Virus record (IMG/VR): IMGVR_UViG_3300021963_009201
Span: 64,001-128,000 of that record
DNA length: 64,000 nucleotides
Strand: one strand, 5' to 3'
Source: a virus
The notes beneath the pieces were generated by a model, which did no database searches, had not been told where the DNA came from, and saw only the letters and a program-made list of their open reading frames with translations. The position numbers and the translations under genes are program-made. Every line of letters starts with the position of its first letter. The stretch's first letter is position 1. Positions 45,739-63,614 of the stretch are shown here, one piece after another.

Positions 45739-45749
45739 TTTTCACCTTG

Positions 45750-45824
45750 CGCCCCCTGAGGGACTCGAACCCCCGACCTAGCGGGTAGAAACCGCTTGCT
45801 CTAATCCGGCTGAGCTAAAGGGGC
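45750..45824 (-). tRNA. tRNA-Arg(UCU)
   Basis: Full cloverleaf GCCCCTT-TA-GCTC-AGCCGGATTA-GAGC-A-AGCGG-TT[TCT]AC-CCGCT-AGGTC-GGGGG-TTCGAGT-CCCTC-AGGGGGC-G; CCA not encoded (CAA follows). Confidence 0.93.
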
Positions 45825-56830: not shown

Positions 56831-57076
56831 TTAGCCCTTTTCGCCAGCGCGACGATGGAACTCAATGTTGTCACCAGACTGGATGACATAGTTGTCGTCC
56901 AGTTTTTCCTTACCCTTGTAAGCGTTTGCGTCGCCTGGGATGCCCCACATCGACCCAAACTGCTGACGAAGTTCAGAAACGCTCTTACCTACGTGATTAC
57001 CGGGATTGTTGTAAACACCGTAGCGGATCTGTGCTGAGCCACCGCTCTGCGATCCTGGGGATGATGCTTGCTGCAT
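56831..57076 (-). CDS. ubiquitin-like (beta-grasp) modifier protein
   Basis: 81 aa; GKSVSELR, LDDNYVIQSGDNIEF beta-grasp pattern; exposed tail RRAGEKG; starts 1 nt after the E1 stop. Confidence 0.8.
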   Translation of the reverse strand: MQQASSPGSQSGGSAQIRYGVYNNPGNHVGKSVSELRQQFGSMWGIPGDANAYKGKEKLDDNYVIQSGDNIEFHRRAGEKG

Positions 57077-57859
57077 TTATGCTCCTTGGTATACTAATTC
57101 GTTAACGTTAACGCTTCGGTCAAAACTCTGGGCTAACCCGGCTTCTAAGTCAAAGAAATATTCACAATTAGAAGCCGGATCATTACCTTCAACAATGACC
57201 ATATTAAACCGTGCCAGCAATGCTGCTGTTACGGCCATATTCGTGGCAAGAAGCTGCGTCCCTCCTTCGAGTTCAGCCCTCTCTTGACACGAAAGTTCAC
57301 CAGGGTTACGGTCAGGAGGATTTACGTACTCCTCATGCCAAACCGCAGGGTGATCTACCAGCTCAATACCATCACGCTTAGCGTAGTGGTACGTAGAGCC
57401 AAAGTACTTTTCATCATTTCCGCCCAAAAATACGTCGACATTATTAATTTTAGAGGCCGCATCTATTAGCTGTTTCCTTGCTTTGAAGTTATCAACTACA
57501 GCAAAAATGATATCTTTTTCGACAATTAAGTCAGAAGCAGCTATTTTTCCTGCCGGCTTAGAGCCATCTGCTTCCTTGTCATCATCTTTTGCCCCCTCAA
57601 CTTTATCGACTACCCAATATGGCATAGGGATTATAAACGTTTTGTCAAACTGGGGGACAAGTTCTGAAGCGAGAACTTCAGCTTTATTGCCTACGCCATT
57701 AAAAAACTGACGTTGCTTATTCTTTGCTTCGAAGTTGTCACCATCAACTATGACTAGCGCTGACCCTGGCATTCTCCATTCTAGAGTCATAGCGATAGAC
57801 CTAGAAAGCAGGGAGCCAATACCGCCTGCGCCAACGATAATTACTCTGCGCTCTTCCAT
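57077..57859 (-). CDS. ThiF/E1-like ubiquitin-activating enzyme
   Basis: IIVGAGGIGS, IVDGDNFEAKNKQRQ, NKAEVL, VVDNFKAR, single Cys in ELSCQE followed by QLLATN. Confidence 0.92.
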   Translation of the reverse strand: MEERRVIIVGAGGIGSLLSRSIAMTLEWRMPGSALVIVDGDNFEAKNKQRQFFNGVGNKAEVLASELVPQFDKTFIIPMPYWVVDKVEGAKDDDKEADGSKPAGKIAASDLIVEKDIIFAVVDNFKARKQLIDAASKINNVDVFLGGNDEKYFGSTYHYAKRDGIELVDHPAVWHEEYVNPPDRNPGELSCQERAELEGGTQLLATNMAVTAALLARFNMVIVEGNDPASNCEYFFDLEAGLAQSFDRSVNVNELVYQGA

Positions 57860-58431
57860 TAAAACTCCTCGTAATTTATGTGAATATAGTCATTTGTTGC
57901 TGCTGACGACAAACTTTGAATGACTAATTCATCTTGGTAATAATCTTCACATACTGTAATACCTGCACTGATTTTAGGGTTCTTTATGTAATGAATTACA
58001 AAATTACGCAAGGGTTTGCAGTATTCAGTGTATTGGTACGAGCATGTAAAGCAGTCATTGGAAAATGAGTCTTGATACACGTTTTCCCAAATATCTTGAG
58101 GGACTTCTTCTGTATCATCCCAGCTCACTGGGTATGAACATGTGCAATCCATCATAGACTCTTCGCAGCAAATCATTAAAGGATCACTTGATGCGTAAAA
58201 GTCTTTAATCTGTTCTATAACAACTGTTGGTGCAGTAGCAACAAAAAGATCCCAGTCTTCTTCAGTAAAACCAACGCCACACGATTCGCATGAGTGTTCG
58301 TTAAATTCGACTAGATCTTTGCAGTTGGGATTCAAACATTCAACTAGTAGAGCACTCTCGTTATGGGAGCTTGATGCTATATCTATATTGCAGTAGGGAC
58401 AATTGGGAAGATCTTCTTCCATTTCACTCAA
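57859..58431 (-). CDS. multi-zinc-finger acidic protein inside the Ubl operon
   Basis: CPYC, CLNPNC, CESC, CC...CTC, CFTC...C...C. Confidence 0.7.
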   Translation of the reverse strand: MSEMEEDLPNCPYCNIDIASSSHNESALLVECLNPNCKDLVEFNEHSCESCGVGFTEEDWDLFVATAPTVVIEQIKDFYASSDPLMICCEESMMDCTCSYPVSWDDTEEVPQDIWENVYQDSFSNDCFTCSYQYTEYCKPLRNFVIHYIKNPKISAGITVCEDYYQDELVIQSLSSAATNDYIHINYEEF

Positions 58432-58479
58432 ATAGGAGTAACACTCAAGGCAGTAGCCGTAGTGCTCTTTATTTGAGTG
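58425..58479. promoter_or_regulatory. long imperfect intergenic stem-loop
   Basis: CACTCAAATA...TATTTGAGTG arms with further internal pairing, between JAB and the Zn-finger gene. Confidence 0.5.
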
Positions 58480-58481
58480 AT

Positions 58482-59753
58482 TCAGCCTTTTCCCAGCGCA
58501 TCACCGACTTTATCTGCTGCGCAGTAAAGTTCGAGTTTATCTTGAGAGTTGTTTTTGGTCCATAAGTATATTGGTTTTTGAACGCTTCGTTCTATGTCGA
58601 TGTCGTTGGAAAACAGCCCCATTGCTTTGCGGTGTGCTACTACATTGGGTACAGTTTCGTTATCGAACATAATATACTGATGACAGGACAGGCATCGACG
58701 CTTATCTTTGTCTACTTTGACAAACTTCACGGAACAAAACGGACAATGTGTATCGTTTTCGCTGATGCAGGCGATAATAATATTATCTTTGATAGGGGGA
58801 AAATCTTCAGGAAGCGTAACTTCTTTAGCTTGAGGTACAGTGCTGTAGCCTGTAGTTGAAGTTCCACCCGCACCGTACCCGTAGGAATAGTCGGTATAAC
58901 CGTATGAGCCAACGCCAGTTTTTCCGTTAGCTGTAGGTGTGTATACTTTCTTGGAAACTTTACCCATCCATACATCAATATCTGGCGAAGGGTCAGATTT
59001 TGGGAATGAATCAAATACCTGCCCTGGGTCAAGAGAAAATACTCCACCAGGAGTTTGTAACTCAATATGGTATTCTGTAGCATTATTGTTAATATTCTTC
59101 CGCCAACCATAGGTTATATGAATACCCGGAAAATCTGCCTGATCTTTATGGTCAGTGCCGGAAGCAAATGCTGGCATGTTTGGGTGGCTGTGAGCGGAGC
59201 CGACTAGGTAGACATGTTCCGGCTTCTCTTTAGCTATAGACTCGTGGTCATAAGCACAGTCAGCCGCCGTGTTTGTTTGGTCGGGAACTAAAACTCCCCA
59301 TCCGTCGCCTTCGTTTTCGAGACCAAAAAAGTTTGGATCATAAGTAAGGAGTACTATCGACTCGGTGCCGTGCTTGTCTTCGACAGCCCTAAAGAAATCG
59401 TCCATTTTTTGAACCATTTCATAAGGAATTCTAGGAAGCGTATACTCTGCGCTAGTAGAAAGAGTTTCCAAGTTAAGTTCTTGTTCTGTTGCTACAGTAA
59501 CAGAACGGGAAATAATAGTGGAGACAACTTTGAAAATTGTCGGCCTTGTACTAGTCTTGGTCGTCTTATTAGTGTCTGTATAGCTATATTCTTCTACCGT
59601 CATTAAGTAGTAGAAGTTATAGCCATGGGCTTCAATATGTTGGCAAATATCATCTACATTTCCAACGAAGCATGGCATTCCATTTGGTAGGTCAAAATAA
59701 GTTAATTCTTCCAGCGGAATTAACTCAAACTTATCTTCTGATACTTCTGTCAT
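58482..59753 (-). CDS. JAB/JAMM metalloprotease with C-terminal Zn finger
   Basis: GTESIVLL, exact JAMM motif HSH-x7-S-x2-D (HSHPNMPAFASGTD), CPFC...CLSC. Confidence 0.9.
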   Translation of the reverse strand: MTEVSEDKFELIPLEELTYFDLPNGMPCFVGNVDDICQHIEAHGYNFYYLMTVEEYSYTDTNKTTKTSTRPTIFKVVSTIISRSVTVATEQELNLETLSTSAEYTLPRIPYEMVQKMDDFFRAVEDKHGTESIVLLTYDPNFFGLENEGDGWGVLVPDQTNTAADCAYDHESIAKEKPEHVYLVGSAHSHPNMPAFASGTDHKDQADFPGIHITYGWRKNINNNATEYHIELQTPGGVFSLDPGQVFDSFPKSDPSPDIDVWMGKVSKKVYTPTANGKTGVGSYGYTDYSYGYGAGGTSTTGYSTVPQAKEVTLPEDFPPIKDNIIIACISENDTHCPFCSVKFVKVDKDKRRCLSCHQYIMFDNETVPNVVAHRKAMGLFSNDIDIERSVQKPIYLWTKNNSQDKLELYCAADKVGDALGKG

Positions 59754-59776
59754 TACAGGTCCTTGTTGAGGTTAGT

Positions 59777-61279
59777 TTAAGAAAGTACTAGTTTTGCGTA
59801 GCAGCTTTTGCAAACTGGCTGCGAATAGTTATCGTCTAAATATTGAATATTTTCTTTATAAACAAGAGATTTACATTGGCAAATAGAGTATTCTGTTACG
59901 CAGTCTGAGCAAAGTTTAGCTAAAGACATTTCCTGGGTAAAAGGATCAAGGTGTTCAATCAGGGCAAGATCCTCGACTGCTGTAGGGTATGAACAGTTAG
60001 AGCAATGCTCAACTTTGGTACAAGCTACGCACATATCGTTACTGATTAACGATTCTTCATCTTCATGAAAACTATAACATTTCTGACACTGAAACAAAGT
60101 CACACATGAAGAGCAGTGAAAGTTTTCATTGTAAAAAGCCATGTCGGCATAATGCTTATGAGTGTCACATGAAACGCAAATAGCTAATTTTTCTTCTGCG
60201 CACCAAGTGCATGCATAACCGTTTTCAAAGCTTATAACATTTGAAGACCCATAGATTTCTCCGCAAAGTTTGCACGACGTAATGTGATCAGAAAACGGTA
60301 TAAGCGGCTTATGTTCTTCTGCTGTTTTTATCGTTTTGCTTTCAGCACTCCTAAAAGCGCTTTGAATCTTAGTCAATACATCTTTATTTGACGGAGGCTC
60401 AAGATCTTCTCGAATAAACTTTTGATAATTTTTTGGAGTATTTTGATCTCCGTAATATGCGCGGTACTTGCCATCTACCGCCATTCTCAATGTGTAGTAA
60501 GAACCATCTTCACCATCGTAGTGCTTCGTCTGATCATCAATATCTTTTACAATGACGGGAATCCAAAGGCTACCATCTAGGGTCCAATCAGCGCCTTCTT
60601 GGGATGATTTACCTTCCCAAGCCTCAGGGTCCCAGAGGTAATTATATTCGATATTGTTTTCATATTTCTCGGCGTAAAAACGTGGGCCATCTGTTTCTTT
60701 CATGTTGGCGTCATTATATGCTTCAGTGCCGCCAGCGCGCTCAACGAGATTTGCTATTTTTTGACCAAGGTTCAAGTGTGATATAGATGGTTTATTGTGA
60801 TAAAGACATATCCAGCCGACACCATTACCGTTGCCATAGCCTTTGCAATTTAAGTTTGGCAAGTTCACATGAAATAAAACTTGATCAAGACTAGTTATAG
60901 GTGTCGGAGAGTAAAAGTGTCTAGCACCAAAAAATTCATTATCAACAAAATCGCCAATTACAATACGATACGGCATTGCAAGGTCGTAGTGGACGGCTTC
61001 GGTATCCCCTTCGGAACCGCCCCATATGACCCTATATACGCCTGGAGTATGCTGAAATACTACCTGACAATGCCCAAGGGCTTGACGGATCATTAACGTG
61101 CCCGATCCGTCAAGCGGCAATATCCCGGTATCAAAAAATGCTATATCACTTATTGACTTAAAAACAGCATTCAACTCTTTTGTTTCAGTATTTTCTATAT
61201 TACCGACAACAATAGAATTTTTAACTCCCTGATCACTTAATTCAATAAAGGAACCTATTTTTGGGTCAACATATGACAT
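59777..61279 (-). CDS. prokaryotic E2-like domain fused to about ten CxxC zinc-finger units, paralogue A
   Basis: GILPLDG...DLAMPYRIVI...LFHVNLPNLNC...GWICL...YNDANM; C-terminal CKLC, CTWC, CVSC, CSSC, CQKC, CVAC, CSNC, CSDC, CQC, CKSC. Confidence 0.72.
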   Translation of the reverse strand: MSYVDPKIGSFIELSDQGVKNSIVVGNIENTETKELNAVFKSISDIAFFDTGILPLDGSGTLMIRQALGHCQVVFQHTPGVYRVIWGGSEGDTEAVHYDLAMPYRIVIGDFVDNEFFGARHFYSPTPITSLDQVLFHVNLPNLNCKGYGNGNGVGWICLYHNKPSISHLNLGQKIANLVERAGGTEAYNDANMKETDGPRFYAEKYENNIEYNYLWDPEAWEGKSSQEGADWTLDGSLWIPVIVKDIDDQTKHYDGEDGSYYTLRMAVDGKYRAYYGDQNTPKNYQKFIREDLEPPSNKDVLTKIQSAFRSAESKTIKTAEEHKPLIPFSDHITSCKLCGEIYGSSNVISFENGYACTWCAEEKLAICVSCDTHKHYADMAFYNENFHCSSCVTLFQCQKCYSFHEDEESLISNDMCVACTKVEHCSNCSYPTAVEDLALIEHLDPFTQEMSLAKLCSDCVTEYSICQCKSLVYKENIQYLDDNYSQPVCKSCYAKLVLS

Positions 61280-62021: not shown

Positions 62022-62519
62022 TTAAAGCCTTGATTCACTTAAGCGATCATTTAAATCTTTAGATCGCTTTCTTTTAATGTCTAAAATAGTTTCATGATCT
62101 ATGTCATTATCTTTTAGGTACTGATGATACATTGAGTCAACTTGGTCTCTAATAATAGATTCAGATTTTTCGTTCCATTGAACCCAAATATTTCCAAACA
62201 AAGCGTCAATGTTTTTTACAGCAGACTGTATTTGTCGAGAACTGTGTCCTCCCCAAACCCCATATTCTTCTTTCTTAACTAAGGCTAAGAAAAGACAATC
62301 TTTTATGACTGGGCACTTCAAGCAGACTTTAGAAGCTGTATCTAATTCTTGATTATGGCTTCTAGGGTACATTTGCCCTGGTTCGCTTTCCCAGCAGTTC
62401 CCAAGTGGTGCCCAACTTCGTTTTTTAGTTTGAAGATTTCTATAAAAAAATTCTAAAGATTTGTATGGGGGTAATTCTATTTCTTCTAAAATATACTCTT
62501 CATCATAAATCATGTCCAT
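62022..62519 (-). CDS. whiB: WhiB-family Fe-S transcription factor with extensions
   Basis: NCW...KVCLKCPVIKDCL...EEYGVWGG; start taken at ATG 62519. Confidence 0.88.
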   Translation of the reverse strand: MDMIYDEEYILEEIELPPYKSLEFFYRNLQTKKRSWAPLGNCWESEPGQMYPRSHNQELDTASKVCLKCPVIKDCLFLALVKKEEYGVWGGHSSRQIQSAVKNIDALFGNIWVQWNEKSESIIRDQVDSMYHQYLKDNDIDHETILDIKRKRSKDLNDRLSESRL

Positions 62520-63171
62520 TTTTATTTTCTTTTTCTGCAGAGAGTTCTTTAATAATTGAAAATAAGACAGCTGGCCTATAAAGCTTCTGTCCAATTTTAT
62601 CTGTTACATTTCCGTAATTAATGATATTTTCGTCAGGCGCAATATTTAAGCTAGAACACGATGCAATATATTGATTTTTGGCTTGCTCAAATTTCCAGTC
62701 CAAGAATGAATGGTATGTTCCCATATATAAGAAAAGTTTATCGGCTTCAAGTTCTTTTGGTGCACTTTCTGCCGCTTTCCAAATAATACTGGAATACTCA
62801 CGCACAACATGGATCATAATGATGTTATGCCGAGCTTCATGAAGGTCTATATAATCGTCTAGCATTCCCTCACTAATTCGGTTCACTACATCGCATAAAG
62901 CTGACATAATTGGCGCATCAGATCTAGAATCAAGAAGCTCTGAATAGAAAGATATTAAATCAGCACTAGCAAAAACCACTAACGGAACTGATGTATTGTG
63001 CAGATTAACGCTATCAATATCAATATATTTACTTAAGGCTTCTACAAGTTCTGAAGGGAGACTTTCTCCGTTTGGGCCTAAAATTTTTGAAGCACTCTTG
63101 TTATTTTTCGGCGCGTCATTAAGAATATCGTCATCTTCATCACCTATGAAGTACGGATTACTGGAATTCAA
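62503..63171 (-). CDS. hypothetical helical protein
   Basis: TTG start after AGGAG RBS. Confidence 0.7.
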   Translation of the reverse strand: MNSSNPYFIGDEDDDILNDAPKNNKSASKILGPNGESLPSELVEALSKYIDIDSVNLHNTSVPLVVFASADLISFYSELLDSRSDAPIMSALCDVVNRISEGMLDDYIDLHEARHNIIMIHVVREYSSIIWKAAESAPKELEADKLFLYMGTYHSFLDWKFEQAKNQYIASCSSLNIAPDENIINYGNVTDKIGQKLYRPAVLFSIIKELSAEKENKNGHDL

Positions 63172-63179
63172 AGTCGCTC

Positions 63180-63614
63180 CTATTTTTTGAGATTTTTTAA
63201 CTTATCTATTTCTAATTCATTTAGAAATACATTAGCAAGCTTGTCTGCTTCGTGGACGTAAGATCTTTTCACGTGTTGAATCCTAAATCTAAACTCTTGC
63301 TGAATAATCCTAATAGATTTTAAAAGAGTAAAAAGATTTTCGTTTCGGCATTGCCATTTTCCGTTTACCTGATTAACAACTACAGCGGAGTCGCTATAAA
63401 TTATAGGGTCGTTTAATTGAGCCATAGAACAAATTAGAAGACTCGTAATTACGGCTTCATATTCCGCTTCATTATTTGTTCGTTTGCCTAGGCCGCGAGC
63501 ATATTTTGCTATTTCTTTTTTATTTTTATAAACAACAATACCGCACGCTGCTTCCCCCATCTTTTTTTGGCCTTGCCCCCTTGCCGCACCATCGCAAACG
63601 ACTTCAATTAACAT
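63180..63614 (-). CDS. rnhA: ribonuclease HI
   Basis: CDGAARG, TNNEAEYEA, YSDS.VVVNQVNGKW, HVKR...EADKLAN. Confidence 0.92.
   Translation of the reverse strand: MLIEVVCDGAARGQGQKKMGEAACGIVVYKNKKEIAKYARGLGKRTNNEAEYEAVITSLLICSMAQLNDPIIYSDSAVVVNQVNGKWQCRNENLFTLLKSIRIIQQEFRFRIQHVKRSYVHEADKLANVFLNELEIDKLKNLKK

Follow-up and report, generated by a model that had tools for sequence, protein, structure and literature searches.

The stretch of DNA analysed here, a 64,000-nucleotide window comprising bases 64001-128000 of a 190,033-bp IMG/VR virus record (IMGVR_UViG_3300021963_009201; CheckV, ~90% complete), carries a compact cassette of genes for an E2-like protein, a JAB/JAMM metallopeptidase, a cysteine-rich protein (which we call Cys8), a ThiF-type E1 and an 81-residue ubiquitin-like protein (Ubl, or tag), transcribed in this order (Table 1). 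The plus-strand half of the record encodes virion proteins, a ribonucleotide reductase, a DnaB-type helicase, a primase, a Pol III alpha-type polymerase and an endolysin, and these virion, replication and lysis genes identify it as a large tailed phage, in agreement with the phage origin assumed in a preliminary description of the locus. That description, made from the letters and their open reading frames (ORFs), had outlined five consecutive co-oriented genes: an E2-like domain with a cysteine (GWICL) fused to CxxC repeats, a JAB protease with an exact JAMM motif, a Cys-rich protein, a ThiF/E1 with GAGGIG, NxxRQ, one crossover-loop cysteine and no CxxC pairs, and an 81-aa beta-grasp protein ending RRAGEKG. 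The ORF listing matches these genes and their limits exactly, all on the minus strand, and every quoted motif is found in the translations.

The junctions are short (23 nt between the E2-like and JAB genes, 50 nt between the JAB and Cys-rich genes, an overlap of 1 nt between the Cys-rich and E1 genes and 0 nt between E1 and Ubl), and this tight spacing points to an operon. A sixth conserved gene, missed in the preliminary description, lies 3 nt upstream of the E2-like gene and encodes a helical protein of 132 residues, to which no Pfam or PHROG family could be assigned; in each of the six loci compared, the gene immediately preceding the E2-like gene encodes a homologue (alignment A12). At the other end, the 347-aa gene downstream of the tag was considered as a member of the module and rejected, as it is not conserved in L004, one of the related loci described below. 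A scan for promoters and terminators gave counts not above those of shuffled sequence.

Table 1. Genes of the cassette and associated genes, with positions in the window.
Gene product	Positions	Strand	Remarks
Helical protein, 132 aa	61283-61681	minus	Conserved first gene of the module
E2-like protein, 500 aa	59777-61279	minus	N-domain, Cys loop and CxxC tail
JAB/JAMM metallopeptidase, 423 aa	58482-59753	minus	JAMM core
Cys-rich protein (Cys8), 190 aa	57859-58431	minus	Eight invariant Cys
Minimal ThiF-type E1, 260 aa	57077-57859	minus	Pfam ThiF above cut-off
Ubiquitin-like beta-grasp protein, 81 aa	56831-57076	minus	AlphaFold model and C-terminus
AAA+ ATPase, 526 aa	52962-54542	minus	Associated neighbour, not core; Pfam AAA, AAA_lid_3
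Prok-E2_D-like paralogue, 299 aa	49173-50072	minus	Tandem pair, first
Prok-E2_D-like paralogue, 277 aa	48343-49176	minus	Tandem pair, second

Components of the cassette

The E1 matches Pfam ThiF (PF00899) with 41.1 bits at a cut-off of 28.1, which places it in the family. Its translation carries VGAGGIGS, KNKQRQ and ELSCQERA, and in four orthologues (47-86% identity) G10xGGIG15, D39, N47xxR50Q51, K59, D123 and Cys191 are invariant, the latter being the single cysteine of the crossover loop (in ELSCQER; codon 57287-57289); the nucleotide-binding glycines and the Arg, Lys and Asp residues for ATP-Mg are thus retained. Neither the translation nor the orthologue alignment contains a CxxC pair, hence there is no zinc site of that type. 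The named E1 subfamilies (ThiF, MoeB, UbaA, PRTRC-ThiF and Cap2) match over the Rossmann N-terminus only, with the N-termini of ThiF and MoeB as the best named NCBIfam matches, and MccB proteins are the only solved sequences that the E1 profile reaches (E 7e-4), again restricted to the Rossmann N-terminus. Therefore, this is a very divergent minimal E1.

No family model in Pfam, NCBIfam or PHROG matches the 81-aa protein. Its AlphaFold model, built with 12 homologues (pLDDT 78), shows a predicted b-b-a-b-b-b topology preceded by a disordered Ser/Gly-rich N-terminus, and Foldseek against the PDB places ubiquitin variants, NEDD8 and SUMO on top (probability 1.0, TM 0.55-0.65, best E 7.6e-4), so that the model supports the beta-grasp fold proposed at the outset. 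The exposed C-terminus reads ...EFHRRAGEKG-stop, and the pattern EF-x-R-x-x-G-(E/Q)-K-G is invariant in 17 of 17 sequences, at identities down to 30%. The terminal glycine is the last residue in 15 of them, the other two being extended by 1 and 5 residues (a natural extended form, P0130, ends GEKG-IFSL); such strict retention matches the requirement of an E1 substrate. A profile of the Ubl family finds one match only in the phage at E up to 1, that is, no second copy of the tag, within the reach of a sequence-based search that a structurally similar, sequence-divergent protein could escape.

The JAB protein scores 22.7 bits against Pfam Prok-JAB (PF14464; E 9.7e-5), below the cut-off of 25, and the precomputed Prok-JAB matches of its orthologues are weak too. 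Its JAMM motif is nonetheless complete: the stretch HGTES...HSHPNMPAFASGTD reads E...HxH-x7-S-x2-D, with E131 as the catalytic glutamate and the core H188-S-H190-x7-S198-x2-D201 encoded at nt 59151-59192. The protein consists of an N-terminal alpha/beta domain, the JAMM core and a C-terminal CxxC...CxxC zinc ribbon, and both the motif and the four ribbon cysteines are invariant in orthologues. These features are retained in the orthologues from the distant loci L012 and L013 (E 4e-51 and 5e-59, respectively), and the nearest solved sequences are those of JAMM deubiquitinases (Rpn11-like protein, BRCC36 and AMSH-LP). A separate observation concerns the C-terminus of the peptidase (window 58482-58493), which reads ...ALGKG and resembles the tag end ...AGEKG. 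The orthologues in L003 and L004 end in GK and GKS, and the form in L005 does not. It may act as a pseudo-substrate or as a tail for self-conjugation, or the likeness may be due to chance.

The 500-aa protein carries GVGWICLYH followed by about ten CxxC pairs, and is divided into an N-domain (residues 1 to ~315) and a tail (residues 333-500, nt 59780-60283). In its AlphaFold model (pLDDT 84) the N-terminal beta unit is followed by a helix (36-44), a beta-meander (60-124), a long loop with the cysteines and a helical region, while from residue 333 a string of zinc-finger-like units is predicted. This placing of the loop after the beta-meander is that of UBC enzymes. The loop reads L-x-H-V-N-L-P-N-x-N-C...G-W-I-C-L-Y-H, where H137 and N139 are near-invariant and N142, N144, C145, G155, W156, C158 and Y160 are invariant (codon of Cys158, 60806-60808). 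It resembles the UBC signature, HPN...G-x-I-C-L, a likeness that we treat as a lead only. Prok-E2_D (PF14460) is not matched, even at E up to 1, by any of the 42 + 30 members of the E2-like family examined. With BLASTP, the similarity of the 500-aa protein to the two paralogues in Table 1 is not significant, and Foldseek of the whole model against the PDB returns LIM-like zinc-finger rows only and no E2. A structural comparison places eight UBC/E2-fold chains in the top 50 rows, with low Z and a weak match to solved structures, and the neighbours of the protein in a protein-language-model search are viral clusters in which 13-19% of the members carry Prok-E2_D.

The decisive link to known E2 proteins is provided by the paralogues. 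These two genes lie in tandem 7 kb downstream of the cassette, match each other at E 1e-19 and each keep an invariant cysteine in an L-P-x-x-N...I-C loop; the close relative from which L003 comes has both genes too. Pfam Prok-E2_D matches 14 of the 16 members of their family (best E 3.2e-6), and NCBIfam PRTRC_B matches 10 of the 16 weakly (best E 0.0022). In hhalign, the shallow profile A4 of the E2-like protein reached only 41% with the paralogue family and the diverse profile A8 was needed: A8, covering the E2-like N-domain, aligns with the paralogue profile A3 at 97.1% (E 5.9e-11, 184 columns). Over the whole phage, A3 finds three matches only, the two paralogues and the 500-aa ORF (E 0.015). 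Since the profile link leads to paralogues that themselves match Prok-E2_D, we are confident, with some reserve, that the N-domain belongs, as a remote member, to the E2/UBC superfamily close to Prok-E2_D and, jointly, that a single E1 and a single tag are accompanied in the phage by three E2-like genes. This agrees with the initial reading of an E2-like domain fused to CxxC repeats, at the level of remote homology between profiles.

The closest folds to the tail of the E2-like protein are LIM domains, with weak Foldseek scores. The tail is missing in family members of 340-365 aa and longer in others (up to 761 aa). The third gene, originally described simply as Cys-rich, encodes eight invariant cysteines (C88, C89, C96, C98, C127, C130, C138 and C161; alignment A10), and only zinc-ribbon-like leads to its identity emerged. 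In L005 the Cys8 module is fused to the C-terminus of JAB; such a fusion in one lineage implies that the Cys8 protein is functionally tied to the pathway, probably as a metal-binding adaptor. The variable metal-binding modules on the E2-like protein and on the putative deubiquitinase are most simply read as devices for substrate or partner recognition.

Conservation and genomic neighbourhood

Synteny in related phages, which the preliminary description had pointed to as informative, is conserved: diverged phage contigs encode conserved counterparts of all five proteins in an unchanged order, so the five-gene module is not a chance arrangement. The order helical protein, E2-like, JAB, (Cys8), E1 and tag recurs in L002 and L003 (from close relatives), in L004-L006 (contigs of 101-236 kb, with E2-like proteins ~48% identical) and in L012 and L013, the most distant representatives found. 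An exhaustive profile search with the E2-like family yielded 208 clusters, formed at 50% identity, of which 182 lie below 1e-30, and thus the family is large and sharply bounded. Its relatives occur in only 3 of 185,579 prokaryote species genomes, in contigs of 2-22 kb from metagenome-assembled genomes labelled Cyclobacteriaceae, Bacillota and Ectothiorhodospiraceae (L015, L016 and L017). As these belong to three unrelated phyla, the contigs are probably mis-binned phage DNA. Searches of the phage collection at the DNA level and by tblastn, with the cassette and the E2-like protein, gave no match, and a search with the E1 found two Bacillus jumbo phages only, at 26% identity. The cassette is not a stray capture, and the size of the E2-like family, the fixed gene order and the near-absence from prokaryote genomes suggest that many large phages depend on protein tagging in infection.

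The AAA+ ATPase gene is found downstream of the cassette also in L003, L004, L005 and L006. The protein belongs to the classic Cdc48/PAN/FtsH clade, with Walker A (GIPGTGKS), pore loop (KFIGESE) and Walker B (WMDE) motifs, matches to Pfam AAA and AAA_lid_3 and CDC48/PAN-like matches in NCBIfam. Homologues are present in many cultured phages (of Mycobacterium, Rhizobium, Rhodobacter and others). A proteasome-docking tail of the HbYX type was considered and rejected, as the C-terminal ends vary and have no penultimate tyrosine. Because the family is also found in these many cultured phages and no proteasome-docking motif is present, a coupling of the ATPase to the cassette is suggestive only.

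Upstream of the cassette lie genes for a WhiB-family protein and an RNase H/RVT_3-like protein (62022-62594 and 63180-63614). This pair also flanks the cassette in L004, and WhiB is found in L005/L006 as well. The flanking WhiB hints at an actinobacterial host, despite a G+C content of ~40%. Elsewhere in the window, a single tRNA-Arg(TCT) gene (45749-45824, minus strand) lies in the non-structural block, and the segment 38001-40000, which overlaps both a 281-aa ORF and the beginning of the endolysin gene, has a G+C fraction of 0.53 as compared to ~0.40 in the rest.

A candidate conjugation pathway and its alternatives

We consider it reasonably probable that the cassette is a self-contained pathway, owned by the phage, for conjugating a ubiquitin-like tag to proteins. 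What is observed directly are the domain identities, the catalytic residues, the organisation as an operon and a deep conservation restricted to phages, and from these we infer the chemistry and the targets. How would such a pathway run? The E1 would adenylate the free C-terminal Gly81 of the tag and take it over as a thioester on the crossover-loop Cys191. The tag would then pass to a loop cysteine of the E2_D-like domain, for which we favour Cys158, Cys145 being invariant as well, and from there to lysines of target proteins. Substrate selection, in an E3-like manner, would fall to the variable zinc-finger tail built into the E2-like protein and to the Cys8 protein, the two extra E2_D paralogues could broaden the choice of targets, and the JAMM peptidase would remove the tag and trim the rare precursor forms. 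The likely purpose would be to re-programme host or phage proteins while a host, probably an actinobacterium, is infected. A cascade from E1 to E2 to target with reversal by the JAMM peptidase, every chemical step of it being deduced, is in our view the best-supported reading. That the phage runs its own conjugation machinery had been suggested already in the preliminary description. The tests of the individual components support this, and it is the best reading because the phage origin is confirmed and the record holds no partners of a sulfur pathway.

Several points weigh against conjugation and have to be set beside this scheme. The tag ends in Lys-Gly and not in Gly-Gly. The minimal E1 has neither a zinc site nor a UFD-like E2-docking domain, so that it is not evident from the structure how the tag would be handed from E1 to E2. 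Neither the 500-aa protein nor any of 72 relatives matches an E2 family in Pfam, NCBIfam, PHROGs or PADLOC, sequence-profile searches of the PDB (profiles A1, A3 and A4) reach no solved E2, and in the alignment of A8 with A3 the cysteines of the two families stand three residues apart rather than in one column. Finally, the host could supply the partners for a sulfur transfer.

This last point leads to a different use of the same activation chemistry, in which the tag, once adenylated by the E1, would become a thiocarboxylate donor (in the manner of ThiS, MoaD or TtuB) for tRNA, DNA or a cofactor, with JAB maturing or recycling it. The E1 is indeed of minimal ThiF/MoeB size, with its best NCBIfam matches to the N-termini of these proteins, and the modelled beta-grasp fold of the tag is ThiS/MoaD-like, but the tag has no Pfam match to ThiS or MoaD, is closest in structure to ubiquitin, NEDD8 and SUMO, and ends in KG, not GG. 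The absence of ThiG, MoaE and ParB, noted earlier for the window, extends to the whole 190-kb record, from which rhodanese is missing as well, the control genomes being positive in these searches (for ParB, with ParB_N, PF02195). Since none of ThiG, MoaE and rhodanese is encoded in the record and the E1 bears no rhodanese domain, while three E2_D-like genes with an invariant cysteine are conserved together with JAB and the zinc-finger adaptors, cofactor-type sulfur transfer is unlikely, and we give a sulfur-carrier system of any of these kinds very little weight. Even less probable is a ligation that is not directed at other proteins, where the C-terminus would be activated so as to be joined to a small molecule, a lipid or a nucleic acid, for self-modification or for a modification similar to that by MccB. 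The E2-like and Cys-rich proteins would then be scaffolds and not carriers of a thioester. The reach of the E1 profile to MccB proteins, as the only solved sequences, could be taken in this sense, as could the invariant penultimate Lys80, unusual for a Ubl, and the invariance of both loop cysteines of the E2-like protein. However, the MccB match reflects the shared nucleotide-binding motif only, and the tagging of proteins agrees with the folded beta-grasp, with the JAMM peptidase and with the homology to E2_D.

A further alternative concerns purpose rather than chemistry: the cassette could be a counter-defence module which undoes or jams the Ubl-based immunity of the host, such as virion tagging by Bil or priming by CBASS Cap2/Cap3. 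JAB would then strip host conjugates, and the E1, E2 and Ubl would act as competitors or decoys, or would inactivate host defence proteins by tagging them. This would suit a family that is almost confined to phages and a location on the minus strand among non-structural genes, those for WhiB, RNase H and AAA+ included, all the more as the characterised bacterial E1/E2/JAB/Ubl systems are anti-phage (PMC11601603). The N-terminus of the E1 also matches the PADLOC 'E1-E2' (Cap2) models, weakly (E 3e-4 or worse) and over its first 60-85 residues only. There is, however, no specific link of JAB or of the tag to the proteins of Bil or CBASS, and the PADLOC defence models match none of the E2-like, JAB, Cys-rich and Ubl proteins, in a 2023 release (PADLOC-DB 2.0.0) that may lack Bil models. 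Moreover, if deconjugation were the only role, neither the E1 nor the three E2-like genes nor the strict conservation of the tag would be needed. We therefore regard counter-defence as the main function as rather unlikely, although such a role is compatible with the same conjugation chemistry and may sit on top of it.

If the phage-owned conjugation pathway is taken as the starting point, a more far-reaching version can be considered, in which the E1, the KG tag, three E2s, the zinc-finger adaptors, the JAMM peptidase and the Cdc48/PAN-like AAA+ unfoldase together would make up a virus-run, ubiquitin-style degradation or segregation pathway, in which the unfoldase recognises tagged host proteins and either unfolds them or passes them to host proteases. 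This is speculative and we think it unlikely. If true, it would amount to a prokaryotic-virus counterpart of the ubiquitin-p97/proteasome axis of eukaryotes, employed for host takeover.

Relation to known systems

We found no description of a phage-owned E1/E2/JAB/Ubl pathway in the literature. Bacterial Ubl conjugation is characterised there as host machinery only, namely CBASS Cap2/Cap3, Bil and Bub (PMC11601603, PMC1779556), and reviews of the bacterial Ubl systems treat them as host operons (PMC11601603). Knowing the targets would show whether bacterial viruses, like eukaryotic ones, use ubiquitin-type modification against the host. The cassette would also represent a compact orthogonal tagging system, with an E2 that brings its own zinc-finger adaptors and a tag that would leave a mono-Gly remnant after trypsin.

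The sole named system with sequence affinity to several of the parts is PRTRC (NCBIfam TIGR03734-TIGR03742), found on plasmids and integrative conjugative elements and comprising ParB-related and ThiF-related proteins together with proteins A-F. The preliminary description had equated the architecture of the cassette with that of PRTRC. A weak affinity of three components stands: besides the PRTRC_B matches of the paralogues, the E1 matches PRTRC_ThiF at E 5.6e-5 (22.6 bits, cut-off 144.75) and JAB matches PRTRC_A at E 0.023 (14.3 bits, cut-off 101.8), and both cassettes are borne by mobile elements. However, all the curated cut-offs are missed by a wide margin, the 500-aa and 81-aa proteins have no NCBIfam match to PRTRC_B and PRTRC_C, respectively, and the record, that of a large phage of lytic type, contains no ParB. 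It follows from the missed cut-offs and from the lack of PRTRC_C and ParB that the cassette is not a PRTRC member, and the likeness is a distant one only. The zinc-finger-tailed E2, the Cys8 protein, the extra E2 paralogues and the AAA+ neighbour set it further apart.

The Bil operons (BilABCD) are bacterial anti-phage Ubl conjugation systems that correspond to class 6d of Iyer et al., 2006 (PMC1779556), on which this comparison draws. Both systems have separate genes for Ubl, E2-like, JAB and E1 proteins along with a small helical protein, both JABs have an extra N-terminal alpha/beta domain, and in both a histidine follows just C-terminal to the catalytic cysteine of the E2 (here C158-L-Y-H161). 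In contrast to Bil, the present cassette is phage-encoded, its tag is a single beta-grasp ending in KG, and its E2-like protein has an HxN motif before the cysteine, which class 6d is said to lack. Type II CBASS, with Cap2 and Cap3, shares ThiF-type adenylation, an E2-like cysteine and a JAMM peptidase with the cassette, apart from the weak PADLOC match of the E1, but here E1 and E2 are separate proteins and a dedicated beta-grasp tag stands in place of the C-terminus of a CD-NTase. A phage-encoded pairing of beta-grasp and JAB proteins is already known from the lambda-type tail assembly proteins I (Ubl-like) and K (JAB with NlpC/P60), as described in the same source (PMC1779556). Those are found in a tail-assembly cluster without E1 or E2, whereas the cassette described here contains both and lies in a non-structural block on the opposite strand.

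The closest parallel in a cultured virus is seen in the 230-kb Bacillus phage vB_BceM_WH1 (LC597490), where gp214-gp216 (record positions 180163-185319) follow the same order of E2-like, JAB and E1. By hhalign, gp214 matches the E2-like N-domain at 92.6% (E 4.6e-7). The JAB-like gp215 is found by BLASTP at E 4e-11 and has HSH-x7-S-x2-D, and gp216, the sole annotated one of the three ('ThiF family adenylyltransferase'), is 26% identical to the E1 and carries the loop ...EMSCAER... We note that gp216 itself ends in ...AAGK. In contrast to the cassette, no adjacent gene for an 80-aa tag is seen, the next gene encoding a NADAR protein; there is neither a zinc-finger tail nor a Cys8 gene, and the host is a Firmicute. 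The presence of the E2-like/JAB/E1 trio in a cultured Bacillus jumbo phage makes genetics feasible.

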